Virus record (IMG/VR): IMGVR_UViG_641736116_000024
DNA from: a virus
Taxonomy: Duplodnaviria; Heunggongvirae; Uroviricota; Caudoviricetes
Length of the DNA: 25,340 nucleotides
Reading direction: 5' to 3' (one strand)
The position numbers and the translations under genes were made by a program. Below the pieces are notes generated by a model that saw only the letters and a program-made list of their open reading frames with translations, did no database searches and had not been told where the DNA came from. This document shows positions 1-24,758 of this stretch, piece after piece (within the stretch, counting starts at the first letter, position 1; each line of letters opens with the position of its first letter).

Positions 1-702
1 ATGACTTTAAAGCGTTTGCAACTGATCGAAATGCCAATGTTATGTCGCAGGAGGAATGGGAAGCGTTGCGTGCGCTTATATCCGGGATTTACAGCAGGGA
101 AAGCATCCAGTGCGCAAGTCAATAAGGTTATTCGGCAGGCCAGCTTTATTGCTGCAGCTCTGGCCCAGTTTGTAAGTGATAAAACGCAACGGGATGTGCT
201 TGATAATGGTGATCTGCCCGGTTTTGTTGAATTGCTGGGATCGGGGTTTGCTGTTGAATACCTGAGCCGCAAGAATCCGTTTGGCGATATCAAATCGGAC
301 GGCACGGTGAAAACGGCTTTCATAAACGTTGGTTTGGGAGAAGCGGCAAAACGGGATGTGGGGACAGGGGAAAATCAGATACCGGACATGGCCTCTTTTG
401 CCAGTGGTGATGGATGGATGAAATTACCCAACGGTAAAATCCTGCAATATGGTCGTGGTGCGGTTACGCCGACATTATCGACGCAAACAATGAGAATTAC
501 ATTCAGCATCCCTTTCCCCAAAAAAGCGGACTGCGCCATGCTTACTCATTCTGGTGATGGCGGTGCGCCTTTAGGCGCTGGGCGAGGGTTCGTGATGACT
601 GCAGAAGGCCCAACGTTAACCGGCTTTAATTCTGCTTACAGAACGTCATCAACCAGCGACACGGTATCGATGAATTACAGTTGGTGGGCTGTTGGTGAGT
701 AA
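1..702 (+). CDS. Silent (promoterless) alternative tail-fibre C-terminal cassette; the part from about 344 to 702 would fuse to the H N-terminus after inversion. Upstream part (1-343) may be a decayed remnant.
   Basis: Frame 1 is open from position 1 to the stop at 700-702 with no start context. It is followed immediately by its own tail-fibre assembly gene and lies opposite and convergent to H-G. It shares an in-frame GLGE-coding 15-mer with H at the proposed crossover site. Confidence 0.5.
317..342. promoter_or_regulatory. Candidate serine-invertase crossover site (cix/gix/hix-like), outer copy
   Basis: CTTTCATAAACG-TT-GGTTTGGGAGAA. The inner arm plus centre (329-343) is a perfect 15-bp inverted copy of 2219-2233; the outer arm is degenerate. 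Confidence 0.5.
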
Positions 703-722
703 TTTTATTCAGGGTGATTTAT

Positions 723-1166
723 ATGAACGAATATGTTTATAGCGCAAGGCATAATGCTTTTTTCCCTGTGGATATGATTGATAAATATAAATCAGAGGGA
801 TGGGATTTATCAGACGCTAAGGAAGTAAATCAAAATATTATCAGTGAGTTTATGGCTGAACCGCCACAAGGAAAAATCCGTATTGCCGGAGATGATGGGC
901 TGCCTGCGTGGGCAGATATTCCTCCACCCACGCATGAAGAACTTATTGAAATTACTGAATCAGAAAGACAGCTACTAATTAACCAGGCCAACGAATACAT
1001 GAACAGTAAGCAATGGCCCGGTAAAGCCGCTATTGGTCGTCTGAAAGGTGAGGAACTGGCACAATATAATTTGTGGCTGGATTATCTGGACGCACTGGAG
1101 CTGGTCGATACCGCCAGTGCGCCAGATATTGAATGGCCTACGCCTCCGGCAGTTCAGGCCAGATGA
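723..1166 (+). CDS. Tail fibre assembly protein (alternative copy, Tfa')
   Basis: C-terminus NLWLDYLDALELVDTASAPDIEWPTPP is the conserved Tfa/gpG-type tail. The ATG at 723 has AGGGTG upstream. Its 3' end overlaps the convergent G gene. Confidence 0.8.
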   Translation: MNEYVYSARHNAFFPVDMIDKYKSEGWDLSDAKEVNQNIISEFMAEPPQGKIRIAGDDGLPAWADIPPPTHEELIEITESERQLLINQANEYMNSKQWPGKAAIGRLKGEELAQYNLWLDYLDALELVDTASAPDIEWPTPPAVQAR

Positions 1167-1740
1167 CATCCGGCGCGGTGCTGGTATCTGTTGCCGTCAC
1201 CGCGTCAATGTAATCCAGCACCGTGTTAAGTCGGTTGGTTTCTGCCTGCGTCAGCTTCCGTCCGGCCTGTAATTTCAGCTGAATCAGACTAATGGAAGCC
1301 ATTGCAGTATCAATCAGCGACTGGCGTTGTGTTTCTGCCGCTTCTACTGCGGCGCTATGCTGTGCTTCGGTATCCGTCACCCATTTCTCACCATCCCATT
1401 TATCGTATGGCGTTAACGGGGCGATAGTGGTTGTATTATCAGGGTAATCACCCGGAGCGGTGATTTCTTTTGATTCTCCTGTTTCGGTGCTAAAGACGAT
1501 TTCACCGCGATGGTCTGGCACATATTCCCATGAGTTAAAATCTGCAGAACGGCAGATTGCATAACCAGCTTTGTATGCGCCTGGGGCATCTAAACAGGAA
1601 TATGCCGGAATGCCGACACCAATAGCAAGATATTCAGTTGAAGCTGAAATATATTCCCGACTCATGACATCAAAGTTATAAACAGTAATTTCTCCTGCCA
1701 TAGTGGCAATTAATTCACTGTTTAATTCTGCGTTATTCAT
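1138..1740 (-). CDS. G: Tail fibre assembly protein (P2 gpG-like)
   Basis: 200 aa; C-terminus LNTVLDYIDAVTATDTSTAPDVIWPELP is Tfa-type. Start overlaps the H stop by 1 nt. Confidence 0.85.
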   Translation of the reverse strand: MNNAELNSELIATMAGEITVYNFDVMSREYISASTEYLAIGVGIPAYSCLDAPGAYKAGYAICRSADFNSWEYVPDHRGEIVFSTETGESKEITAPGDYPDNTTTIAPLTPYDKWDGEKWVTDTEAQHSAAVEAAETQRQSLIDTAMASISLIQLKLQAGRKLTQAETNRLNTVLDYIDAVTATDTSTAPDVIWPELPEA

Positions 1741-11820: not shown

Positions 11821-11993
11821 TGTCAGGAGTCCTGAATAGTGATTAGAAGAGTCACATGTCGGCATCAGTTTCCCGACGATGCGCATCCTCCGCCATCAGT
11901 CCCGGATGGCTTATCACTGACACAACAGCACCTTAGCGAATCGCGGGGCGCGACTCAGTAGCCTTGCCGTGTATTCATCACGGCGAGGTATTC
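11821..11993. promoter_or_regulatory. Divergent late promoter region between O and P
   Basis: Intergenic region between divergently transcribed O (minus) and P (plus), as in P2. No clean TGT-N12-ACA activator site was identified by eye. Confidence 0.35.
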
Positions 11994-13766
11994 ATGACCA
12001 TCACCACAGACACCACTCTTTTACACGACCCGCGTCGTCAGGCGGCGCTGCTGTACTGGCAGGGATTTTCCGTGCCGCAGATTGCCGCCATGTTGCAGAT
12101 GAAACGCCCGACGGTGCAGAGCTGGAAACAGCGCGACGGCTGGGACAGCGTTGCCCCCATCAGCCGTGTCGAAATGAGTCTGGAAGCGCGGCTGACCCAG
12201 CTCATCATCAAACCGCAGAAAACCGGCGGTGACTTCAAGGAAATTGACCTGCTCGGACGCCAGATTGAACGACTGGCACGGGTAAACCGCTACAGCCAGA
12301 CCGGCAACGAGGCAGACCTTAATCCGAACATCGCTAACCGCAACAAAGGCGGGCGGCGCAAACCGAAAAAGAATTTTTTCAGTGACGAGGCTATCGAAAA
12401 GCTGGAGCAGATTTTCTTTGAGCAGTCTTTCGAATATCAGTTGCACTGGTATCGCGCCGGGCTTGAGCACCGCATCCGCGATATCCTGAAATCCCGCCAG
12501 ATTGGCGCGACGTTTTATTTTTCCCGCGAGGCGCTGCTGCGCGCCCTGAAAACCGGTCATAACCAGATTTTTCTGTCGGCCAGTAAAACGCAGGCGTATG
12601 TGTTCCGCGAATACATCATCGCCTTTGCCCGGCTGGTTGACGTTGACCTGACCGGTGACCCGATTGTCCTGGGCAATAACAGCGCAAAACTGATTTTTCT
12701 CGGCACCAACTCCAACACCGCGCAGAGCCATAACGGCGACCTGTACGTCGACGAGATTTTCTGGATACCGAATTTTCAGGTACTGCGTAAGGTGGCATCA
12801 GGTATGGCCTCACAGAGTCACCTGCGCTCGACCTATTTCTCCACCCCGTCCACGCTGGCGCACGACGCCTACCCGTTCTGGTCGGGTGAACTGTTCAACC
12901 GGGGACGCGCCAGCGCCGCCGAACGCGTGGAAATCGACGTCAGTCATAACGCTCTTGCCGGTGGGCTTCTCTGTGCGGACGGTCAGTGGCGGCAGATTGT
13001 CACCATTGAGGACGCCCTGAAAGGTGGCTGCACGCTGTTCGACATTGAGCAGCTTAAACGCGAAAACAGCGCCGACGATTTTAAAAACCTGTTCATGTGT
13101 GAATTTGTTGACGACAAGGCGTCGGTGTTCCCGTTCGAGGAGCTGCAACGCTGCATGGTCGACACGCTGGAAGAATGGGAAGACTATGCGCCGTTTGCCG
13201 CGAATCCGTTCGGCTCCCGCCCGGTCTGGATTGGTTACGACCCGTCACACCGTGGCGACAGTGCCGGATGCGTGGTGCTGGCACCGCCGGTGGTGGCCGG
13301 TGGCAAATTCAGAATACTTGAGCGTCACCAGTGGAAAGGCATGGACTTTGCCACCCAGGCTGAATCCATCCGCAAACTCACCGAAAAATACAACGTCGAA
13401 TACATCGGAATTGATGCCACCGGCCTCGGTGTCGGCGTGTTCCTGCTCGTTCGCTCGTTCTATCCCGCCGCACGCGATATCCGCTACACGCCGGAAATGA
13501 AAACCGCAATGGTGCTCAAGGCAAAAGACGTTATTCGCCGTGGCTGTCTGGAATATGACGTCAGCGCCACCGACATCACCAGCTCGTTTATGGCTATCCG
13601 CAAGACCATGACCAGCAGCGGACGCAGCGCCACCTATGAGGCCAGCCGCAGCGAGGAAGCCAGCCACGCCGACCTCGCCTGGGCGACCATGCACGCCCTG
13701 TTAAATGAGCCACTCACCGCCGGTATCAGCACCCCGCTGACATCCACCATTCTGGAGTTTTACTGA
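11994..13766 (+). CDS. P: Terminase ATPase (large) subunit gpP
   Basis: Start MTITTDTTLLHDPRRQAALLYWQGF with GAGGT upstream gives 590 aa; stop overlaps the Q start. Confidence 0.9.
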   Translation: MTITTDTTLLHDPRRQAALLYWQGFSVPQIAAMLQMKRPTVQSWKQRDGWDSVAPISRVEMSLEARLTQLIIKPQKTGGDFKEIDLLGRQIERLARVNRYSQTGNEADLNPNIANRNKGGRRKPKKNFFSDEAIEKLEQIFFEQSFEYQLHWYRAGLEHRIRDILKSRQIGATFYFSREALLRALKTGHNQIFLSASKTQAYVFREYIIAFARLVDVDLTGDPIVLGNNSAKLIFLGTNSNTAQSHNGDLYVDEIFWIPNFQVLRKVASGMASQSHLRSTYFSTPSTLAHDAYPFWSGELFNRGRASAAERVEIDVSHNALAGGLLCADGQWRQIVTIEDALKGGCTLFDIEQLKRENSADDFKNLFMCEFVDDKASVFPFEELQRCMVDTLEEWEDYAPFAANPFGSRPVWIGYDPSHRGDSAGCVVLAPPVVAGGKFRILERHQWKGMDFATQAESIRKLTEKYNVEYIGIDATGLGVGVFLLVRSFYPAARDIRYTPEMKTAMVLKAKDVIRRGCLEYDVSATDITSSFMAIRKTMTSSGRSATYEASRSEEASHADLAWATMHALLNEPLTAGISTPLTSTILEFY

Positions 13767-14800
13767 TGAGCAAGAAAAAAGGGAAAACACCGCAACCTGC
13801 GGCAAAAAAAATGACCGCCAGCGCCCCGAAAATGGAGGCATTCACCTTTGGTGAACCGGTGCCGGTACTCGACCGCCGTGACATTCTGGATTACGTCGAG
13901 TGCATCAGTAACGGCAGATGGTATGAGCCACCGGTCAGCTTTACCGGTCTGGCAAAAAGCCTGCGTGCTGCCGTACATCACAGCTCACCGATTTACGTCA
14001 AACGTAATATTCTGGCTTCAACGTTTATTCCGCACCCGTGGCTTTCCCAGCAGGATTTCAGCCGCTTTGTGCTGGATTTTCTGGTGTTCGGTAATGCGTT
14101 TCTGGAAAAGCGTTACAGCACCACCGGTAAGGTCATCAGACTGGAAACCTCACCGGCAAAATATACCCGCCGTGGCGTGGAGGAGGATGTTTACTGGTGG
14201 GTGCCGTCCTTCAACGAGCCGACAGCCTTCGCGCCCGGCTCCGTGTTTCACCTGCTGGAGCCGGATATTAATCAGGAGCTGTACGGCCTGCCGGAATATC
14301 TCAGCGCCCTTAATTCTGCCTGGCTGAATGAGTCGGCCACGCTGTTCCGCCGCAAGTATTACGAAAACGGCGCTCATGCCGGATATATCATGTACGTCAC
14401 CGATGCCGTGCAGGATCGCAACGATATCGAAATGCTTCGCGAAAACATGGTCAAGTCGAAAGGCCGCAACAACTTTAAAAATCTGTTTCTCTATGCCCCG
14501 CAGGGGAAAGCCGACGGCATTAAAATTATCCCGCTCAGTGAAGTGGCAACGAAGGACGATTTTTTTAATATCAAAAAAGCCAGCGCCGCTGACCTGCTGG
14601 ACGCGCACCGCATCCCCTTTCAGTTGATGGGCGGCAAGCCGGAGAACGTCGGGTCGCTGGGTGATATTGAGAAAGTGGCAAAGGTCTTTGTCCGCAATGA
14701 GCTTATCCCGCTACAGGACAGGATCCGCGAGATAAACGGCTGGCTCGGTCAGGAGGTCATCCGCTTTAAAAACTACTCACTGGACACTGACAACGGCTGA
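13766..14800 (+). CDS. Q: Portal vertex protein gpQ
   Basis: 344 aa, P2 gpQ length and position. Confidence 0.95.
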   Translation: MSKKKGKTPQPAAKKMTASAPKMEAFTFGEPVPVLDRRDILDYVECISNGRWYEPPVSFTGLAKSLRAAVHHSSPIYVKRNILASTFIPHPWLSQQDFSRFVLDFLVFGNAFLEKRYSTTGKVIRLETSPAKYTRRGVEEDVYWWVPSFNEPTAFAPGSVFHLLEPDINQELYGLPEYLSALNSAWLNESATLFRRKYYENGAHAGYIMYVTDAVQDRNDIEMLRENMVKSKGRNNFKNLFLYAPQGKADGIKIIPLSEVATKDDFFNIKKASAADLLDAHRIPFQLMGGKPENVGSLGDIEKVAKVFVRNELIPLQDRIREINGWLGQEVIRFKNYSLDTDNG

Positions 14801-14969: not shown

Positions 14970-14988
14970 GTGCTTTCCCCGCCTCGCC
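14970..14988. other. cos: cos site (19-nt cohesive end sequence)
   Basis: GTGCTTTCCCCGCCTCGCC is the exact reverse complement of the P2 cohesive end GGCGAGGCGGGGAAAGCAC as I recall it; it lies between Q and the cargo region, as in P2. Confidence 0.8.
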
Positions 14989-15117: not shown

Positions 15118-17088
15118 TTAAAGGTCATCAATTAAACCTAAAGGCAAACCGTCCTCACCAACCGAGCTATAATGAGCGATAATATTCGAAAGTTCACCAG
15201 TAGAAAACGAATTAGGCAAATCATTATCAACTAATATAATCTGGCACGGAACATTTTTTCTTTCTGCTTTTTGAACTGTATTCAATAGTTGTTCATAAAT
15301 ATTTTGATACTTCATCGGATCTGACATTCCCTCAAGGTCATCCTCGAATGCAAGAGTTTCTTTTGAATATTTTTCCTTGGTCTGTTTCCCTAAATATTTG
15401 CCAACCGTATCAAATATCAAAAGTAAAGGATGGTTAACATTATGATCTATTGCATAATCAAGAATAGACAAAAGATACCCAATAGAAGAAATAGTTCTCA
15501 AACCTCCGGATGTTATTTTAAAATATTCTTTTTCTCTTATAACAGGAATGTAATAGCTTTCAGAGATTTTTATCCCCGTTCTGTTTTTGATATTAATACC
15601 CTTCAAATACTGACTAAATCTATCACCCAAACCTTGTAAAATGCCCTCCATGCTAGGTGCGTTTTTCTTTAACGCCTCCAAGCGTTCAGTTAATGCTTCA
15701 ATATCTTTTCTCAGTACCTGATACTTTTCAAGCAGTTCCTCTTGCTGGTTTCTAACCTTCAAATCTTTTACTAACTGCTCCCTAACCTTCTCATTTTTTG
15801 AGATCTCTTTAATATAAAAATCTCTCTGAGTCAAGAATGGTGTAATCATTGACTGGCTTTCTTCGTCAATCAATTCTCTCAACTCGTCAAGTCGTTCATC
15901 TAATTCCTTTTTATAACCTGATTCTTTTTTTAATTTAAATGACATTTCTGAGATCATGTCATTAATATTTCGTCTACGTCGACTAAGTGAATTCAACTCT
16001 TCATTAAGATCTTTTTCTGATGAAATTTCAAATGGAAAATCAGAATCATCTATTTTAATGTGGCTATCACAGACTGGACAGGAAAATACTTCCTTATCCA
16101 ATACACCAATGCGAGAATTTGCTGTTTTAATCGCTTTGAGTTTTTCAATATCATTATCATAGTCATTTTTTAACCGCGAATATTTATCAATCTTATCCTC
16201 AAGCGCAGTAATATTTAATATGCACTCTTTGTATTTAAGCGAAATAAAATTGTGAGCATCTTTCAATTCTGTATACTGTATGGAATCCGCTTTCATATTT
16301 TTATCGAGAGCAGACAAACCTGCAACAAGTTCTTCTAAAACAAGATCTATCCTATTAATCTCATCATCAATTGATTCAATCGTTTCATAGTCTGTATCGC
16401 GAAGAAATTCAGATATTATCTGATACTTCCTATTTAATTCCGTTACTAAACTACTTTTTGCAGATATTTCACCTTGGAGTCTGGCGATGCTTTCATCCAA
16501 CACATTGAACATGTATTTAAAAACTTCTTTCGTAAATGCGTAGCGGGACCAATCACCCAATCGCAAGAAAGATTTACTACCAATATCATCCTGACTTACA
16601 TAAACAAATTTATATATATTTCTAAAACTTAACCTGCGCATCTGTGAATGAGCTTTAGAAGGAGACACCTTAATTTCAATCTTTGGAAAATTAAGACTAT
16701 CAAGTAAAAACTCCGAAAAAACACCATCAACATTTGATAATGGGCTATAATTAGGAGCGTATTTTTTCGGAAAATGTTTATGTAAATCATCAAACTTACA
16801 ACGATAAACTTCTATTGCTTTTTTATGATCATAGATATCTCTTACGATTGTGAATACAGTATCATTGATCACTACTTCAAGAGCAGCATAGTTTACTGAT
16901 GTTTTTATTTCATCTGCTAAATCTATAGAGCTAGCACCTAAAAGATAATTAATAAACTCCAGAATGCTTGACTTACCTGTGTCAGAGTCTCCGTAGATAA
17001 CATTGAGACCTTTATAAAAAGTAGTGACGTAGTTTTTACGAACGCCAACAAGAATCAAACTATTGATATTGAGATATGATTTCATCAT
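15118..17088 (-). CDS. ABC/SMC-Rad50-like ATPase with central coiled coil and CxxC zinc hook; ATPase component of an ABC-three-component (Lamassu-like) system
   Basis: 656 aa. Walker A GDSDTGKS (aa 33-40); long charged, heptad-rich middle containing CPVCDSH; C-terminal signature-like KITSGGLR; Walker B/D-loop LLLIFDTVG. No TOPRIM or nuclease domain recognised. Start overlaps the upstream stop (ATGA). Confidence 0.75.
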   Translation of the reverse strand: MMKSYLNINSLILVGVRKNYVTTFYKGLNVIYGDSDTGKSSILEFINYLLGASSIDLADEIKTSVNYAALEVVINDTVFTIVRDIYDHKKAIEVYRCKFDDLHKHFPKKYAPNYSPLSNVDGVFSEFLLDSLNFPKIEIKVSPSKAHSQMRRLSFRNIYKFVYVSQDDIGSKSFLRLGDWSRYAFTKEVFKYMFNVLDESIARLQGEISAKSSLVTELNRKYQIISEFLRDTDYETIESIDDEINRIDLVLEELVAGLSALDKNMKADSIQYTELKDAHNFISLKYKECILNITALEDKIDKYSRLKNDYDNDIEKLKAIKTANSRIGVLDKEVFSCPVCDSHIKIDDSDFPFEISSEKDLNEELNSLSRRRRNINDMISEMSFKLKKESGYKKELDERLDELRELIDEESQSMITPFLTQRDFYIKEISKNEKVREQLVKDLKVRNQQEELLEKYQVLRKDIEALTERLEALKKNAPSMEGILQGLGDRFSQYLKGINIKNRTGIKISESYYIPVIREKEYFKITSGGLRTISSIGYLLSILDYAIDHNVNHPLLLIFDTVGKYLGKQTKEKYSKETLAFEDDLEGMSDPMKYQNIYEQLLNTVQKAERKNVPCQIILVDNDLPNSFSTGELSNIIAHYSSVGEDGLPLGLIDDL

Positions 17089-17597
17089 TTCTCCTTGAAG
17101 ACTTGATTTATAACAGAGTTTAACTTAGAGGTAGGCAATGCTTGTAGCGGTAACAATGCTTCGGATAGTCGTTTTATTTCTTTAAAATATCCATCAGTCA
17201 ATGAGCTAGCAAATTCCTTACCTTTTTCAGATAAAAATAATTTAACACTCTCATTATTTTTTTTCTCAGCTGAGAGCAATCCCCGCAATGACATAATTTT
17301 TATAAGATATTTCACTTTGGAATTGTCGAATAAGATATCTACATTTGTTGAAAAACTCTTTATTGTATAAGTTAACTGGGACTCGACACAAGCAGGCTTT
17401 TTCCCCGAAACTGTAAGAGCATAATCAATTTTTGATGGGTTTTTTATCAGATACATAAAAATTTGTATTTTATTAATATCTAATGATAACACTCCTTTTT
17501 TGCTATGAGATAATATAGATATAGCAATGGCAAGCATAGCAAAATTCAAGCTATACTCTTCATCAAGAGGAATATACGGCAAGTTATTTTTCTTCAT
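17085..17597 (-). CDS. Small middle component of the three-gene system (LmuC-like position)
   Basis: 170 aa with no recognisable motifs; AT-rich; translationally coupled on both sides (14-nt and 4-nt overlaps). Confidence 0.5.
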   Translation of the reverse strand: MKKNNLPYIPLDEEYSLNFAMLAIAISILSHSKKGVLSLDINKIQIFMYLIKNPSKIDYALTVSGKKPACVESQLTYTIKSFSTNVDILFDNSKVKYLIKIMSLRGLLSAEKKNNESVKLFLSEKGKEFASSLTDGYFKEIKRLSEALLPLQALPTSKLNSVINQVFKEK

Positions 17598-18807
17598 GAT
17601 TACCTCGCCGTAATTGCTCCAAAGTTTCTACGCTGGTTTCAGATGACCAGACAATATCCCTGTCATTTTTGTTAGCCAGTTGATGCAACATTCCTTTCTT
17701 ATGTATCGTTTCTAAACTTTTTATAAGAGAATCTAACGACGACTTATCCTCTTGGGCTATTCGTCTATGAACAGCAGCAATAAATTTATCTGGGGAAATT
17801 GAATTCGCGATATATTGCTCATACTCTTCCTGGTAAATCTCCCTTATTTTAGAATACAAATGACCAAGTAGTTTCCTATCGTAATCACTCGTAAAAATAT
17901 TTCTCGCAAGCTCAGCATTATAATAATATTCCTTTGCATGCATAGCGATATCCTGATGTATATCTGCGACAATCATTTTTAAGACGAAATACTCATTATC
18001 ATATTGTTTCTCATCAGAAAAACGCTCAACACATATCTTCTTGGGTGCTTCTAAATTTATCTGCTGAATAAATTGCTTTACCGCAACAAACACTGTAGAC
18101 GAGCTGTTTTCGGGCTTGCAAATTGAGCTATGCCCTTCATTAACTGCAATTGAGTTATTTCGTTCACTATCCATCGGTAATGCGCTTTTTTTATCAACTA
18201 TAGTGTCATGAGAACCATAAACATATCTAGTGATAGGAAGTTTTTTGCTACAATTTATCCAGCGCCTATTCAACGTATCGGTCGCTTCACTTAACAATCC
18301 AAGATCTACTAACTGAGCATTTGAAGATACCATTGAAGTTATATTCGCCAATTTAGCACCAAAGTGAGGGACTGCTAACGAAATGAATCCAATTATATTA
18401 GATTGTTCCTCATGCTCAACTTTTTTTAGAATTAGATTTTTTGATATTACCCCCCCCATACTATGGGCGATTATTATAATTCGAGAGTAATCACTTAGCG
18501 TTACCCTAATCTCAGTATACAATAACTCAGCTATTTCATCAGTTGGTAAATTTCTCTCTAACTTATTTTTCTTAGAGAAAATACGAGCCCATAATCCTGA
18601 CGTTTTAGCATACGTTTGTGTAAATTTGGTGAAATAATTGAAACATGCAATATCAAATACATTGCCAATGTCTTCATCTTCTGCTAATAGTTTTGGAAAT
18701 GAAGTTTCTTTATTAAAGTTCCATGTTTCCAAACCACCATTTAATCCATGTACAAATAGTATCAGGCTATCTTTTTTCTCGTGGCTTATCCATTCAACCA
18801 TGCTCAT
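17584..18807 (-). CDS. Alpha/beta-hydrolase (lipase/esterase-like) effector with a C-terminal helical domain; LmuA-like effector position
   Basis: 407 aa. Oxyanion-hole LILFVHG (His20-Gly21), nucleophile elbow IIIAHSMGG (Ser116), downstream YVYGSHDTIVD and NEGHSS as candidate Asp/His. C-terminal about 180 aa is helical and charged. Confidence 0.7.
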   Translation of the reverse strand: MSMVEWISHEKKDSLILFVHGLNGGLETWNFNKETSFPKLLAEDEDIGNVFDIACFNYFTKFTQTYAKTSGLWARIFSKKNKLERNLPTDEIAELLYTEIRVTLSDYSRIIIIAHSMGGVISKNLILKKVEHEEQSNIIGFISLAVPHFGAKLANITSMVSSNAQLVDLGLLSEATDTLNRRWINCSKKLPITRYVYGSHDTIVDKKSALPMDSERNNSIAVNEGHSSICKPENSSSTVFVAVKQFIQQINLEAPKKICVERFSDEKQYDNEYFVLKMIVADIHQDIAMHAKEYYYNAELARNIFTSDYDRKLLGHLYSKIREIYQEEYEQYIANSISPDKFIAAVHRRIAQEDKSSLDSLIKSLETIHKKGMLHQLANKNDRDIVWSSETSVETLEQLRRGNHEEK

Positions 18808-18896: not shown

Positions 18897-21179
18897 CTAC
18901 CACTCACGCTGTCTGTCAAAAAAGTCGATATCGTTATCAAATTTAAAACGCTTATGCCCAAAATCCAAAACAGCTCCGCGAGCGAGAGCTTCAAGCTCCC
19001 AATAACTAGCCTGAATGTCACTTTGTGCAAGAAGAACCTTAATTTTCGGGATAGTCTTTCTCTCCTGCCTTGTCAACCGGGCGGATGGGGCAGGAAAGTA
19101 GCTTCGACCATTGAAAGGGGTAAAGCTCTGCTGTGAACGATTACTGCATTTCAGTTCATTACTCAATAAGTCTCTAAGTACCTTCATAATGCCTGGCTCG
19201 GTCCAACTTAGAATCCCTTCATCTATTAAATTTAACACCGCTGCAGCATGCTCAGTCGGTGTGGGAGCCGGTAACGAAGTATCACCACCGGTGAGTTTTC
19301 CACAGTTATTGACAGGACTCCGAGGCGCGGCGATGCCGCTTTTTAAAGTCAAAGGCTCAACGACCGGAACTTTCGGCACAATGCGCCAGTCCGTCGTTCT
19401 GGTGATATGAATATGACGCGCGCCGAGATGCGGCGCGTAAATGCCGACCACTCTCTCGACTTCTTCCTCGTACTCGTTAACGTCATCCGACGGGCTACGG
19501 GCGACCCTGACAGTCTGACAATCGCGCGGGACATTTGCCCCACCCTGCGCGCTGATATACAACGCAAAATCACCACTGTCTGCGGCAGCGCGAGCAGCCT
19601 CGACGCGTTCGTCAAACTCATCAGCAATACTGACGCCGCGAGGCAATTTGCGTAGTTCACGGTAAGCCCCCATTGTCGGCAGTCCAACCGTTTTAAATTG
19701 CGGAATGCGCCACGTTGACGCCCATGCGGTAACAGCCGCGGCAGTATCTTTAAGCGGCTTACCGGTATCGTTATCGAGCTGACCATCCAGTGCATAGCCG
19801 TCGATGTTTTTTGAAATGTATTTCGCGATATATCCCGCAGCACCGCCCCGGTTAAGGTGTTTTGCCTGAAAACGGTTTCGCGCAGCTCCTCTTTCGTCTC
19901 CATCCTCTTTGAGCGCGTAGCGACGCATGATTTCGATAATCTGGTTACGCTGGCGTGGATTACAAAAAAGCATCATATGCCAGTGCGGCGTTCCGTCGTG
20001 GTGTGGCTCGACGACACGCAAACCGTAGACCTGTAAATCATTATCCTTGAATGCCGTGCGCATCAGGCTCCAGATGCGGCAGAGATAACGCTGCGCATCC
20101 TTTGGATTAAATGCCTCATCGTTCCAGCCGTGATTAAGCTGAACGGTTTTACTTTCGCCTTTTCTGACCTGACGTGTCGGGTGATACTTTGACGGCGCGG
20201 TCAGCGTGATAAACATCCCCACATCACCCTCTGCGGCGGCGTAACGCTCAATACCGGCAATGGTGTTCATCAGCTCCATCCGGCGAATTTCAGGATTAGA
20301 AATACTGCCCATCACCTTACTGATAAGGTCGATGCGCTCGCCGGTTTCCCTGTTTTCAAGGTCACACGATTTAAGAAATTCCAGATTTGCCTGGCGGCGC
20401 GCACGCACATCACGAATGGCGTGTTTACTGGCATAAGGAGAACGGTCTTTATTGACCTCCCCGACAGCTATCAGTAACGCTTCATGCCAGCGCATACGCT
20501 GGCCTTTAAGCTGATGAGTCCACCACTCATCGTTAAACAGACGGGCAATGGCAGAATATGCCTGCCTCGTGGTCATCTGCCCTTTACGGTATATTTTCCA
20601 GTAGAGAGGGGAAATATTGAAAGCACGTGCAGCGCCAGCAACATGACCATAGAGGTGAGCCTGCGCCTCATCCGTAAACAGCGATTCTTTTTCGCCATGC
20701 GCATCCACCCAGGCATCACTGAGTTCCCCATACATCATGAAAAGCTGCGATGAGATACGGGCAGCAAACTTTTTCAGCTCCTTGTCATTCATTCCCGGCA
20801 GGCGCGCATAGTGGTCACGCTCTGCCAGAAACAGTAACGACGCGTCGGTGTTCATTTCATGGCGCTGATTCACACGCTCAATGCGCGGCCATAAACGACG
20901 CTGAAAAGTGGATGTGAGGAAATAAAACCCGTGCACCGGGCTTTTATTGCGCCGGATGTGGTCATAGCGTGAAGTAAACAGCGAGCGCAAAAAGTAAGGC
21001 AGGCGGTTAATCGTGGATAAAACACCTTGCACCTGACGCATCTCGTCACGTGTAAGGGGTCTTTCGCGCCCGACGGCCTCGCGTGGCGCGTTCCATGCAT
21101 AAGCACCGGTAAACGCCTTACCGGTGCCTGCAGCAAATGCTGACGGAGGGACAAAACGCCCGGAGGCTTTAACGGCCAT
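18897..21179 (-). CDS. A: Replication initiation endonuclease gpA (rolling-circle initiator)
   Basis: Start MAVKASGRFVPPSAFAAGTGK as in P2 gpA, giving about 760 aa. The ORF track extends 14 codons upstream. The C-terminal region of about 100 aa is AT-rich and appears to diverge from P2 gpA as I recall it. Confidence 0.9.
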   Translation of the reverse strand: MAVKASGRFVPPSAFAAGTGKAFTGAYAWNAPREAVGRERPLTRDEMRQVQGVLSTINRLPYFLRSLFTSRYDHIRRNKSPVHGFYFLTSTFQRRLWPRIERVNQRHEMNTDASLLFLAERDHYARLPGMNDKELKKFAARISSQLFMMYGELSDAWVDAHGEKESLFTDEAQAHLYGHVAGAARAFNISPLYWKIYRKGQMTTRQAYSAIARLFNDEWWTHQLKGQRMRWHEALLIAVGEVNKDRSPYASKHAIRDVRARRQANLEFLKSCDLENRETGERIDLISKVMGSISNPEIRRMELMNTIAGIERYAAAEGDVGMFITLTAPSKYHPTRQVRKGESKTVQLNHGWNDEAFNPKDAQRYLCRIWSLMRTAFKDNDLQVYGLRVVEPHHDGTPHWHMMLFCNPRQRNQIIEIMRRYALKEDGDERGAARNRFQAKHLNRGGAAGYIAKYISKNIDGYALDGQLDNDTGKPLKDTAAAVTAWASTWRIPQFKTVGLPTMGAYRELRKLPRGVSIADEFDERVEAARAAADSGDFALYISAQGGANVPRDCQTVRVARSPSDDVNEYEEEVERVVGIYAPHLGARHIHITRTTDWRIVPKVPVVEPLTLKSGIAAPRSPVNNCGKLTGGDTSLPAPTPTEHAAAVLNLIDEGILSWTEPGIMKVLRDLLSNELKCSNRSQQSFTPFNGRSYFPAPSARLTRQERKTIPKIKVLLAQSDIQASYWELEALARGAVLDFGHKRFKFDNDIDFFDRQREW

Positions 21180-21444
21180 ATGAGCCAAAAGCCTCTGAGC
21201 AACGCTTGCTGAGTTGCTCAACCTGCGCGTTTAAATCAGCAAAAGACTTTGCGCTTCCGGTCAGAATATCGTGATGCATCAGGCCGGAAACGAGCTGGCT
21301 TAATTTCGGGTAATAACCAACCACCGCCAGCCATTCCTGACCGGCGTTTTTACCGCTTTCCGCTCTCTTTTTCTCGTGGAGAATAAACTGAAAGCTGTCA
21401 CTGGTAACGACATAACGTTCGCCAATTTCAATACGAATACTCAT
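21169..21444 (-). CDS. Small early-operon protein (P2 orf83 position)
   Basis: 91 aa, in the early operon immediately upstream of A. Confidence 0.6.
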   Translation of the reverse strand: MSIRIEIGERYVVTSDSFQFILHEKKRAESGKNAGQEWLAVVGYYPKLSQLVSGLMHHDILTGSAKSFADLNAQVEQLSKRCSEAFGSYGR

Positions 21445-23744: not shown

Positions 23745-24758
23745 ATGGCAATCAAAAAACTCGATGATGGTCGATATGAAGTGGACATCCGCCCTACTGG
23801 ACGTAACGGAAAACGCATCCGTAGGAAGTTTGATAAGAAAAGCGAAGCTGTCGCTTTCGAAAAATACACGTTGTACAACCACCACAATAAAGAATGGCTA
23901 TCAAAACCAACAGACAAACGACGTCTGTCGGAACTGACACAGATCTGGTGGGATTTAAAGGGTAAACACGAAGAGCATGGGAAATCTAATCTTGGAAAAA
24001 TTGAAATCTTCACAAAAATAACGAATGACCCATGCGCATTTCAAATCACGAAATCCCTTATCAGCCAGTACTGCGCCACCCGAAGAAGTCAGGGTATTAA
24101 ACCTTCGAGTATCAATCGTGATTTAACATGTATTAGCGGCATGTTTACAGCCCTGATTGAAGCGGAGTTATTCTTTGGTGAGCATCCTATCAGAGGGACA
24201 AAGAGGCTTAAGGAGGAAAAACCAGAAACAGGCTATCTCACACAGGAAGAAATAGCCTTACTGCTTGCAGCACTTGACGGCGACAATAAAAAGATTGCGA
24301 TTCTTTGCCTAAGTACAGGAGCACGTTGGGGAGAAGCAGCTCGTTTGAAAGCAGAAAATATCATCCATAACCGCGTCACGTTTGTTAAAACGAAAACAAA
24401 CAAACCACGCACCGTCCCGATCTCAGAGGCTGTTGCCAAAATGATCGCGGATAACAAACGAGGTTTTTTATTCCCTGATGCTGATTACCCTCGCTTCAGA
24501 CGAACAATGAAAGCAATAAAACCGGATTTGCCAATGGGGCAAGCCACACATGCACTAAGGCACAGCTTTGCCACTCATTTCATGATTAATGGAGGAAGTA
24601 TTATCACGCTACAACGGATACTAGGTCACACGCGGATTGAGCAAACTATGGTTTACGCTCATTTTGCGCCAGAGTACCTTCAGGACGCCATTTCTCTTAA
24701 TCCGCTAAGAGGTGGTACTGAGGCCGAGAGTGTCCACACAGTGTCCACAGTAGAGTAA
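23745..24758 (+). CDS. int: Tyrosine integrase (P2 Int)
   Basis: 337 aa; catalytic region HALRHSFATHF...LGHTRIEQTMVYAHF gives the R-H-R-Y signature. Confidence 0.95.
   Translation: MAIKKLDDGRYEVDIRPTGRNGKRIRRKFDKKSEAVAFEKYTLYNHHNKEWLSKPTDKRRLSELTQIWWDLKGKHEEHGKSNLGKIEIFTKITNDPCAFQITKSLISQYCATRRSQGIKPSSINRDLTCISGMFTALIEAELFFGEHPIRGTKRLKEEKPETGYLTQEEIALLLAALDGDNKKIAILCLSTGARWGEAARLKAENIIHNRVTFVKTKTNKPRTVPISEAVAKMIADNKRGFLFPDADYPRFRRTMKAIKPDLPMGQATHALRHSFATHFMINGGSIITLQRILGHTRIEQTMVYAHFAPEYLQDAISLNPLRGGTEAESVHTVSTVE

Follow-up and report, generated by a model that had tools for sequence, protein, structure and literature searches.

What kind of ATPase is encoded beside the cos site of this P2-like prophage of E. 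coli O157:H7, and what might it do there? The window, the whole stretch of 25,340 nucleotides that was analyzed (IMG/VR record IMGVR_UViG_641736116_000024), contains on its minus strand an open reading frame at exactly 15118..17088, whose 656-residue product a sequence-only reading had described as an ABC ATPase of Rad50/SbcC-type hook architecture. We consider it highly probable that this protein, an SMC/Rad50-like ABC ATPase whose coiled coil carries a zinc hook, is LmuB, the sensor subunit of a complete Lamassu (ABC-3C) anti-phage system of the short class (type II), in its subtype with a lipase effector, CTD8 and MC4, and that it acts by the mechanism proposed below. The gene was assigned as lmuB by PADLOC, Foldseek and profile comparisons. 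As judged from the consensus of homologs, which starts with MKSY, the second ATG, at 17085, is probably the true start.

The elements of the ABC head were found where they had been placed from the letters alone, with Walker A at the N-terminus, TSGG and LLLIFD at the C-terminus, and CPVCDSH between them. Their conservation was assessed in an alignment of 42 homologs (43-87% identity). Walker A (the P-loop GDSDTGKS; residues 33-40; 16969..16992, minus strand) contained four invariant residues (G33, G38, K39, and S40), and the ABC signature (TSGG; residues 526-529; 15502..15513, minus strand) three (S527, G528, and G529). In the deviant Walker B (LLLIFD-T; residues 555-561, with LLLIFD at 555-560; 15406..15426, minus strand), D560 and T561 were invariant, and LLIFD was followed by Thr, not by the catalytic Glu; Q166 was also invariant. 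A deviant Walker B of the form hhhhD[Q/S/T/E] and a LmuB of ~600 residues are hallmarks of short Lamassu (PMC12663957), and both were present here: LLIFD-T fits this consensus, and the protein has 656 residues. The absence of a fused nuclease, also part of the sequence-only reading, was borne out by the domain-profile (HMM) searches: no TOPRIM or other nuclease domain was detected in LmuB, including the C-terminal region, with Pfam, NCBIfam, and PADLOC at E≤0.01. A nuclease hidden in the C-terminus was also considered and rejected; the residues there make up the C-terminal half of the ABC head and can be aligned with LmuB structures.

Between the two halves of the head, the AlphaFold2 (AF2) model (pLDDT 86.5) contained an antiparallel coiled coil, with CPVC in the turn between the up- and down-going helices. 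The ascending arm (residues 199-326; 16111..16494, minus strand) consisted of three helices (199-230, 237-264, and 270-326), with breaks near residues 231-236 and 265-269, and had a heptad z of 4.3; the descending arm (residues 358-476; 15661..16017, minus strand) was a single helix (358-476) with a z of 3.4. The observed periodicity was reached by none of 500 shuffles for the ascending arm and by two of 500 for the descending arm, while the two head halves did not exceed shuffled sequence in the same test (z of 1.0 and 0.4). The apical hook region (residues 327-357; 16018..16110, minus strand) was a non-helical turn with a pLDDT of 58-66. CPVC (residues 337-340, within CPVCDSH at 337-343; 16069-16080, minus strand), in which C337, P338, and C340 were invariant in the 42 homologs, was the sole CxxC in a protein with five Cys in total, and is predicted to bind zinc; phmmer aligned it with CPMC of the Salmonella LmuB (9hqu). 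A coiled coil was therefore present around the CxxC motif, both as AF2 helices and as heptad periodicity, and the Rad50/SbcC-type architecture (ABC head, antiparallel coiled coil, and apical CxxC) proposed earlier was upheld by the model and the periodicity. The heptad-rich spacer between the head motifs had been given as ~450 residues: its heptads stood, since both arms exceeded shuffles, but its length did not, the coiled coil comprising about 280 residues (two arms of about 120-128 residues) and the rest of the spacing from Walker A to the signature being mostly globular head, chiefly the N-terminal half.

This architecture raises the question of whether the protein is a genuine DNA-repair homolog of Rad50/SbcC, paired with an Mre11/SbcD-type nuclease encoded elsewhere in the genome. 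Rad50/SbcC and LmuB have the same arrangement of ABC head, coiled coil, and hook, several homolog entries in the databases are titled 'exonuclease SbcC' or 'Rad50', and a descent of Lamassu from SbcCD has been proposed (PMC12663957). The profiles separated the two: the PADLOC model of LmuB (PDLC03862) matched residues 2-656, the full length of the product, with an E-value of 1.5e-235, whereas the NCBIfam Rad50 and SMC equivalogs scored 15-26 bits against cutoffs of 567-1000 (15-23 against 700-1000 for the Rad50 models). In a Foldseek search with the AF2 model, the best match was 9uxh_F (1.6e-19), followed by 9hqx_B and 9hqu_A, and the top eight were all Lamassu LmuB chains or a Bacillus relative (9uxh, 9hqx, 9hqu, 9nyg, 9ux7, and 9a6c); Rad50, Smc, and JetC ranked below them. 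Rad50 chains were the next-best matches behind LmuB in both sequence and structure, but those in the PDB sequence search spanned only ~66 residues around the P-loop. In that search, the single LmuB sequence gave a marginal match (E 0.057), and a profile built from the 42 homologs reached 9hqu at 1e-11. In addition, SbcC and Rad50 have far longer coiled coils, and the Walker B of this protein lacks the catalytic Glu. No Metallophos/SbcD gene was found in the operon or in three other genomic contexts, in which the partners were always MC4 and lipase-CTD8. Membership in Rad50/SbcC, with scores far under the cutoffs and no SbcD partner, was rejected, and we regard the repair role as very unlikely. 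In both Rad50-Mre11/SbcCD and Lamassu, an antiparallel coiled coil with a CxxC zinc hook at its apex interrupts the ABC head, and DNA ends are recognized; the two differ in output: end resection in the former and release of a toxic effector in the latter.

The neighboring genes agree with LmuB. The operon lmuA-lmuC-lmuB is intact and spans 15118-18807, with lmuB as the last gene and overlaps of 14 and 4 nt; the stop codon of lmuC overlaps the start of lmuB (ATGA). The middle gene, lmuC (17085..17597, minus strand), encodes the putative bridging subunit, a small component of 170 residues of the MC4 type (PADLOC LmuC PDLC03869, E 1.5e-52; Pfam PF20290 MC4, E 5e-27), for which a sequence search of the PDB gave no match even at E≤10. 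The first gene, lmuA (17584..18807, minus strand), encodes the effector of 407 residues (PADLOC LmuA PDLC03851, E 3.5e-108), composed of an N-terminal alpha/beta serine hydrolase or lipase domain (residues ~10-256; Pfam DUF676 4e-9, PGAP1 3.6e-7, and also Abhydrolase_1) and a C-terminal CTD8 domain (residues 265-389; Pfam CTD8 1.7e-35), the latter putatively functioning in docking and/or oligomerization. Ser116 (in AHSMGG), Asp201, and His226, the catalytic triad, were invariant in 39 homologs. The AF2 model of the hydrolase core resembled monoacylglycerol lipases, esterases, and the phospholipases PlaF and PlaB, all of which are generic alpha/beta hydrolases; the CTD8 part was modeled with low confidence (pLDDT of about 37-70), and a single-protein sequence search of the PDB gave nothing useful for LmuA. 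From these domain matches and models, LmuA is predicted to be the separate effector of the LmuB system, acting as a serine hydrolase or lipase rather than a nuclease. The same order, lmuA-lmuC-lmuB, was found among unrelated neighbors in Pseudomonas syringae, Enterobacter kobei, and an ICE of Erwinia pyrifoliae. The window therefore contains the sequence features of a Lamassu: the LmuB ATPase with the hallmarks of the short clade and a CxxC hook, LmuC between lmuA and lmuB, and LmuA with an effector domain and a CTD. The name LmuB, the three-gene operon, LmuA as the effector, an output by a hydrolase rather than a nuclease, and the hotspot described below had all been missed in the sequence-only reading.

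Among characterized systems, those of Salmonella enterica (LmuACB; 9hqu/9hqx) and Vibrio cholerae (DdmABC/LmuACB; 9ny5, 9nyg, and 9uxh) resemble this one in the fold of the entire LmuB (Foldseek E 1e-18 to 1e-19), in the deviant Walker B, and in having a short lmuC gene placed between lmuA and lmuB. Sequence identity between their LmuB proteins and the protein in the window is, however, only about 14-16%, and they are of the Cap4-nuclease/CTD7/MC3 type, in contrast to lipase/CTD8/MC4 here. The CPMC hook of the Salmonella LmuB aligns with CPVC, whereas the V. cholerae LmuB has lost the hook. The solved Lamassu complexes in the PDB are all Cap4/CTD7/MC3 or type I, and no lipase/CTD8/MC4 complex is among them. 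A closer counterpart in terms of the effector is Lamassu Ec-Lipase, an E. coli short Lamassu of clade H (Haudiquet et al., PNAS 2025, PMC12663957); a CxxC hook is found in some short clades, including this lipase clade (PMC12663957). Both systems consist of LmuA-LmuC-LmuB in E. coli with a short LmuB, one CxxC zinc hook, and a lipase-type LmuA. Ec-Lipase protects against lambda-vir, and this requires the Walker A Lys of LmuB and the catalytic His of LmuA (PMC12663957). The mutants concerned are LmuB K42A and LmuA H215A, in contrast to K39 (K38 when counted from the second ATG) and H226 here; in this comparison, which was of residue numbering only, Ec-Lipase is likely to be another, related system.

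The operon constitutes a 3.7-kb cargo in a P2-like prophage of E. coli O157:H7, the lmuACB island having a GC content of 33% against 53% in the remainder of the window. A P2-type cos 19-mer, GGCGAGGCGGGGAAAGCAC, is present at 14970..14988 (minus strand), 130 bp from the stop codon of lmuB, as an exact single match (none expected in shuffles); we take this 19-mer to be the P2 cohesive end. On one side, the island is bounded by the gene for the P2 gpA replication endonuclease (18897..21221, minus strand; Pfam Phage_GPA, E 8e-122; 'replication endonuclease' in RefSeq), and on the other by that for the P2 gpQ portal protein (13766..14800, plus strand; Pfam Phage_portal; 'phage portal protein' in RefSeq). 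An apparently full P2 gene set surrounds the operon across the window, as judged from RefSeq names. The cassette thus occupies the variable position between gene A and cos/gene Q, which corresponds to the P2 defense hotspot between gpA and cos/gpQ, adjoining cos (Rousset et al. 2022, PMC9122126); the accession of LmuA, WP_000063136, is present in the hotspot table of that study (PMC9122126).

P2 old and tin occupy the same genomic position, and LmuB had weak matches to GajA and AriA, which would be consistent with an OLD-, Gabija-, or PARIS-type ABC ATPase that lost its nuclease domain or uses a nuclease in trans. These matches, however, were confined to the P-loop (about 30-55 residues at Walker A, E 6e-4 to 0.05), and no TOPRIM was found with Pfam; in OLD-family ATPases there is no long antiparallel coiled coil capped by a CxxC, and the operon partners, MC4 and CTD8, are specific to Lamassu. 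Kinship with OLD, Gabija, or PARIS was rejected on the P-loop-only matches and the lack of TOPRIM, and we regard its probability as negligible. The comparison with P2 Old, made in the sequence-only reading, is one of position (the shared gpA-cos hotspot), not of architecture: P2 Old (with Tin at the same locus) shares with the system the cos-proximal hotspot between gpA and gpQ, phage exclusion, and an N-terminal ABC-type ATPase, but in P2 Old one polypeptide also contains the TOPRIM nuclease, at its C-terminus, a hooked coiled coil is absent, and homology to LmuB stops at the P-loop.

Given a Lamassu at this locus, is the allele in the window functional? A near-identical island, with 97.3% DNA identity and at the same P2 locus, is that of E. 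coli B REL606, listed as 'Hydrolase + SMC' and carried by plasmid pFR106 (Rousset et al. 2022, PMC9122126). No other near-identical copy is known to have been cloned; 396 of 407 residues of LmuA and 638 of 656 of LmuB are identical between REL606 and the window. pFR106 is absent from the systems reported to be protective (PMC9122126). The lmuC gene of REL606, which lies in a degraded prophage, contains a 2-bp insertion (TG) that cuts the protein after residue 50, whereas lmuC in the window is intact; the copy in the widely used E. coli B lineage is thus a frameshifted lmuC pseudogene, and this frameshift may have been behind an earlier negative defense assay. The truncated lmuC, the degraded prophage, and the lack of reported activity of the cloned system would all fit a Lamassu by descent that is decaying, non-functional prophage cargo also in the window, as it apparently is in E. 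coli B. A 522-residue truncated form of LmuB, with 100% identity to the query in the aligned part (80% of its length), points in the same direction, as it stands for 1268 database sequences. In the window, on the other hand, the three open reading frames are full-length with all catalytic and hook residues intact, the coupled gene overlaps are kept, and the surrounding prophage has its apparently full gene set. Moreover, the island was found at ≥99% identity in 84 of 96 E. coli genomes. We consider decay of this allele unlikely. In deposited phage genomes, the island was not found by megablast, and no close LmuB homolog by tblastn (E≤1e-10).

The mechanism proposed for this Lamassu was derived from homology to the solved Cap4-type complexes (9hqu, 9ny5, and 9uxh) and from the published E. 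coli lipase Lamassu, from which we infer the stoichiometry, trigger, release, oligomerization, lipid substrate, and activity of this allele. Two LmuB protomers would dimerize via their coiled coils and the CxxC hook, and the dimer, together with one LmuC, would keep one LmuA monomer inactive, with the C-terminal domain of LmuA bound near the hook. On infection by another phage, the LmuB heads would bind DNA ends or replication intermediates, ATP-dependent engagement of the heads would open the complex, and the LmuA freed in this way would oligomerize. Its Ser-Asp-His hydrolase domain would then attack a cellular ester substrate, most likely a membrane lipid, and the cell would be killed or arrested before the invader finishes its cycle (abortive infection), protecting the lysogen population and the resident prophage. 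[quoted passage not shown] The suggestion, made from the letters alone, that a dimeric clamp may sense DNA ends or replication intermediates of phages agrees with this published work on LmuB (PMC12663957; 10.1101/2025.03.14.643221).

If the intact O157:H7 allele is an active lipase-type Lamassu, the prophage would have to avoid triggering its own system on induction, because the sensor gene lies 130 bp from cos, and the phage makes cohesive ends and a gpA-nicked rolling circle. We put this forward as a speculative and rather doubtful proposal. Such avoidance might involve expression restricted to lysogeny, ends protected by terminase, or a trigger that responds only to theta-type origins or hairpins. 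Activation of a lipase, not a nuclease, by oligomerization in response to DNA sensing would be mechanistically new, if true, and an intact natural allele is suited to asking by what route the sensor of a Lamassu switches on a lipase effector.

As a discovery, the assignment adds little, since the family, zinc hook, DNA-end sensing, lipase subtype, and location in the P2 hotspot are all already published, and the exact sequence is already annotated: the genes of the identical DNA in RefSeq are named "ABC-three component system". Its use is more in naming, as the genes labeled 'AAA family ATPase / exonuclease SbcC' in O157:H7 prophages are properly LmuB of a complete Lamassu. Concerning expression, promoter-like sites were no more numerous than expected in a promoter and terminator scan of the island (13, against 16.6), and a single weak site was located upstream of lmuA, at 18896-18867.

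The open reading frame at 15118..17088 (minus strand) encoded a protein of 656 aa, in exactly the position assigned by the sequence-only reading, and the motifs quoted there were all present: Walker A GDSDTGKS (aa 33-40), signature TSGG (aa 526-529) Walker B LLLIFD (aa 555-560), and CPVCDSH (aa 337-343), which contained the sole CxxC of the protein. The residue following Walker B was Thr, not the catalytic Glu. In an alignment of 42 homologs (43-87% identity, drawn from many Gammaproteobacteria), several residues were invariant: C337, P338, and C340 of the hook; G33, D34, and T37-S40 (including K39) of the P-loop; Q166, the candidate Q-loop residue; S527-G528-G529 and D560-T561. Two in-frame ATGs were found at the start (17083-17088; ATGATGAAA), and RefSeq starts the protein of E. 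coli O157:H7 TW14359 at the first (656 aa) but that of E. coli B REL606 at the second (655 aa). The second, which shares 1 nt with the TGA stop of the upstream lmuC gene, was favored since the homolog consensus begins with MKSY. A truncated, 522-aa form of the protein (P0005, which stands for 1268 database sequences titled 'exonuclease SbcC [Escherichia coli]') matched the query at 100% identity along the 80% of its length that aligned, corresponded to 15523-17085, and ended directly ahead of the signature motif; such entries may reflect frameshifted alleles, fragments at contig ends, or miscalled genes.

The AlphaFold2 model, for which the 42-homolog alignment was used as input, was confident (mean pLDDT of 86.5) and consisted of a split globular head (aa 1-195 and 480-656), a helical arm that ascends with two short breaks (aa 199-326), an apical non-helical segment carrying CPVC (aa 327-357), and a descending arm formed by one long helix (aa 358-476). 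When heptad a/d hydrophobicity was compared with that of 500 shuffled sequences, both arms exceeded the shuffles (z of 4.3 and 3.4, with the score reached by 0/500 and 2/500, respectively), and the two halves of the head failed this test (z of 1.0 and 0.4). The coiled coil around the CxxC motif was therefore borne out, as was the heptad-rich character of the stretch, but its length was ~280 aa and not the ~450 aa originally estimated; each arm comprised ~120-128 aa, or roughly 18-19 nm. The proposed absence of a fused nuclease also held: no nuclease or TOPRIM domain was found by Pfam, NCBIfam, or PADLOC.

In comparisons of the model with the PDB, the eight best matches were LmuB chains from solved Lamassu complexes or their Bacillus relative YydD (top matches: 9uxh_F (1.6e-19), 9hqx_B, 9hqu_A, 9a6c_A, 9nyg_B, and 9ux7_A), followed by Rad50 (7zr1, 4e-11), Smc, and JetC. 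A profile built from the 42 homologs detected Salmonella LmuB (9hqu; E 1e-11), and CPVC of the query paired with CPMC of 9hqu even in a single-sequence alignment. PADLOC assigned the protein to LmuB over aa 2-656 (E 1.5e-235), while Pfam matches to SMC_N and AAA_23 were weak and under the curated cut-offs. Rad50/SbcC is an architectural, and probably an evolutionary, relative; however, membership in this family was rejected on the basis of family models far under threshold, the short coiled coil, and the deviant Walker B, and no SbcD/Mre11 partner was present. Likeness to OLD, Gabija, and PARIS was confined to the P-loop, and these candidates were also rejected; the only link with P2 Old was the common hotspot.

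The gene is the last of a three-gene operon on one strand, with overlaps of 14 and 4 nt, that forms a sharply low-GC island (33% vs 53% in the remaining window). The first gene, lmuA (17584-18807, 407 aa; PADLOC LmuA, E 3.5e-108), encodes an N-terminal DUF676/PGAP1/Abhydrolase_1 domain and a C-terminal CTD8 (Pfam, E 1.7e-35), and the second, lmuC (17085-17597, 170 aa; PADLOC LmuC, E 1.5e-52), ABC-3C Middle Component 4 (MC4; Pfam, E 5e-27). All testable defining features of Lamassu were found in this operon. In the AF2 model of LmuA, the hydrolase core was confident (the CTD8 half was poorly modeled in isolation) and matched monoacylglycerol lipases, carboxylesterases, and the bacterial phospholipases PlaF and PlaB. 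Since Ser116 (AHSMGG), Asp201, and His226 were, in addition to this lipase-like core, invariant in 39 homologs with identity down to 39%, the 'missing' effector is a separate polypeptide, LmuA, and belongs with the serine hydrolases or lipases, not with the nucleases.

In solved Cap4-type Lamassu complexes, an LmuB dimer is associated with one LmuC and one LmuA. In the published work, the C-terminal domain of LmuA is kept close to the hook and the coiled coils, LmuA is set free when DNA ends are bound and the heads engage in an ATP-dependent manner, and freed LmuA oligomerizes into the active effector; defence depends on the zinc hook of LmuB, on its binding of ATP, and on engagement of its heads (10.1101/2025.03.14.643221; 10.1101/2025.06.23.660979). 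Haudiquet et al. defined short and long Lamassu, the short LmuB having ~600 aa, a Walker B of hhhhD[Q/S/T/E], and at most two CxxC motifs, and listed lipase among the short-type effectors (PMC12663957). Their E. coli 'Lamassu Ec-Lipase' (lipase and Zn hook, clade H) was validated against lambda-vir, and its defence requires the Walker A lysine of LmuB and the catalytic histidine of the lipase (PMC12663957). The published residue numbers (K42 and H215) differ from those of the window allele (K39 and H226), and Ec-Lipase is probably a related system, not the window system itself. At the sequence level, the window operon carries every feature by which the lipase subtype of short Lamassu is recognized, and the same logic is therefore proposed. 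By homology, a hook-dimerized LmuB/LmuC sensor would sequester LmuA, its release would be triggered by foreign DNA ends or replication intermediates, and the Ser-Asp-His hydrolase would then damage the cell, probably at membrane lipid, and abort infection.

The identification of lmuB was already known: the sequence-only inference was good, yet a rediscovery of a described system. The gpA-gpQ hotspot was defined by Rousset et al. 2022, whose supplementary table contains the LmuA accession WP_000063136 as 'DUF676/PGAP1 + hypothetical + hypothetical' (PMC9122126); the ABC-3C nomenclature (MC4, CTD8) is already in Pfam, and the zinc hook and lipase subtype were described in 2025 papers (10.1101/2025.03.14.643221; PMC12663957). 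The three-gene 'Hydrolase + SMC' clone pFR106 came from the P2 hotspot of REL606, and is absent from the three further P2 systems for which protection was reported (PMC9122126). This REL606 system was a 97.3% identical copy of the window island, located in a degraded prophage. LmuA (396/407 residues matching) and LmuB (638/656) were intact, but in lmuC (L007:4968-5482, the REL606 locus; NC_012967 2114673-2115187; homolog of 17085-17597) codon 50 was followed by an inserted TG (2 bp) and immediate stop codons, and RefSeq splits the gene into separate ORFs of 121 and 50 aa. This disruption of lmuC may plausibly explain why pFR106 was not reported as protective. The O157:H7 allele in the window was intact, and would be the better one for testing.

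The flanks of the island were P2-type by Pfam: gpA replication endonuclease (18897-21221; Phage_GPA, E 8e-122) on one side, and portal gpQ (13766-14800) and terminase gpP (11964-13766) on the other. The exact 19-mer of the P2 cohesive end (cos), GGCGAGGCGGGGAAAGCAC, was located at 14970-14988, 130 bp past the lmuB stop. A defence system predicted to sense DNA ends is thus encoded directly beside the place at which the phage generates such ends itself, and this proximity raises the question of self-immunity. The window was 100% identical to a P2-like prophage adjoining yegR in O157:H7 strains such as TW14359, in which RefSeq names the three proteins 'AAA family ATPase', 'ABC-three component system middle component 4', and 'ABC-three component system protein'. 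Since the TW14359 prophage abuts yegR/yegS, the attachment site adjoins yegR; the integrase occupied the right end of the window (23745-24758 and beyond; 23946-25541 in locus L001).

Among 5426 complete E. coli genomes, 96 carried the island, as a single chromosomal copy, and identity was >=99% in 84 of these; none of the deposited phage genomes contained it or a close LmuB homolog. The LmuA(DUF676/PGAP1+CTD8)-LmuC(MC4)-LmuB operon recurred in three other genera: beside T6SS Hcp/DUF4225 genes in Pseudomonas syringae, in a recombinase (resolvase-flanked) island in Enterobacter kobei, and in an ICE of Erwinia pyrifoliae FP236842 (L005:4293-7965), where it lies within the transfer region with TraC on one side and TraU on the other. 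Because its neighbors were entirely different, the lipase-CTD8/MC4/LmuB operon is a self-contained mobile module. In the Erwinia locus, a 726-aa HATPase_c_3 protein, which may be another defence gene, was encoded immediately upstream of the operon. At the left end of the window (1-1740; L001 1-1942), the window start truncates a gene of the recombinase family (DNA invertase-like). It adjoined a gp53-like fragment of a tail fibre and genes for tail-fibre assembly, in opposite orientations, and this region of the P2-like prophage resembles an invertible segment of the Gin/Cin type that would switch tail fibres and thereby host range.
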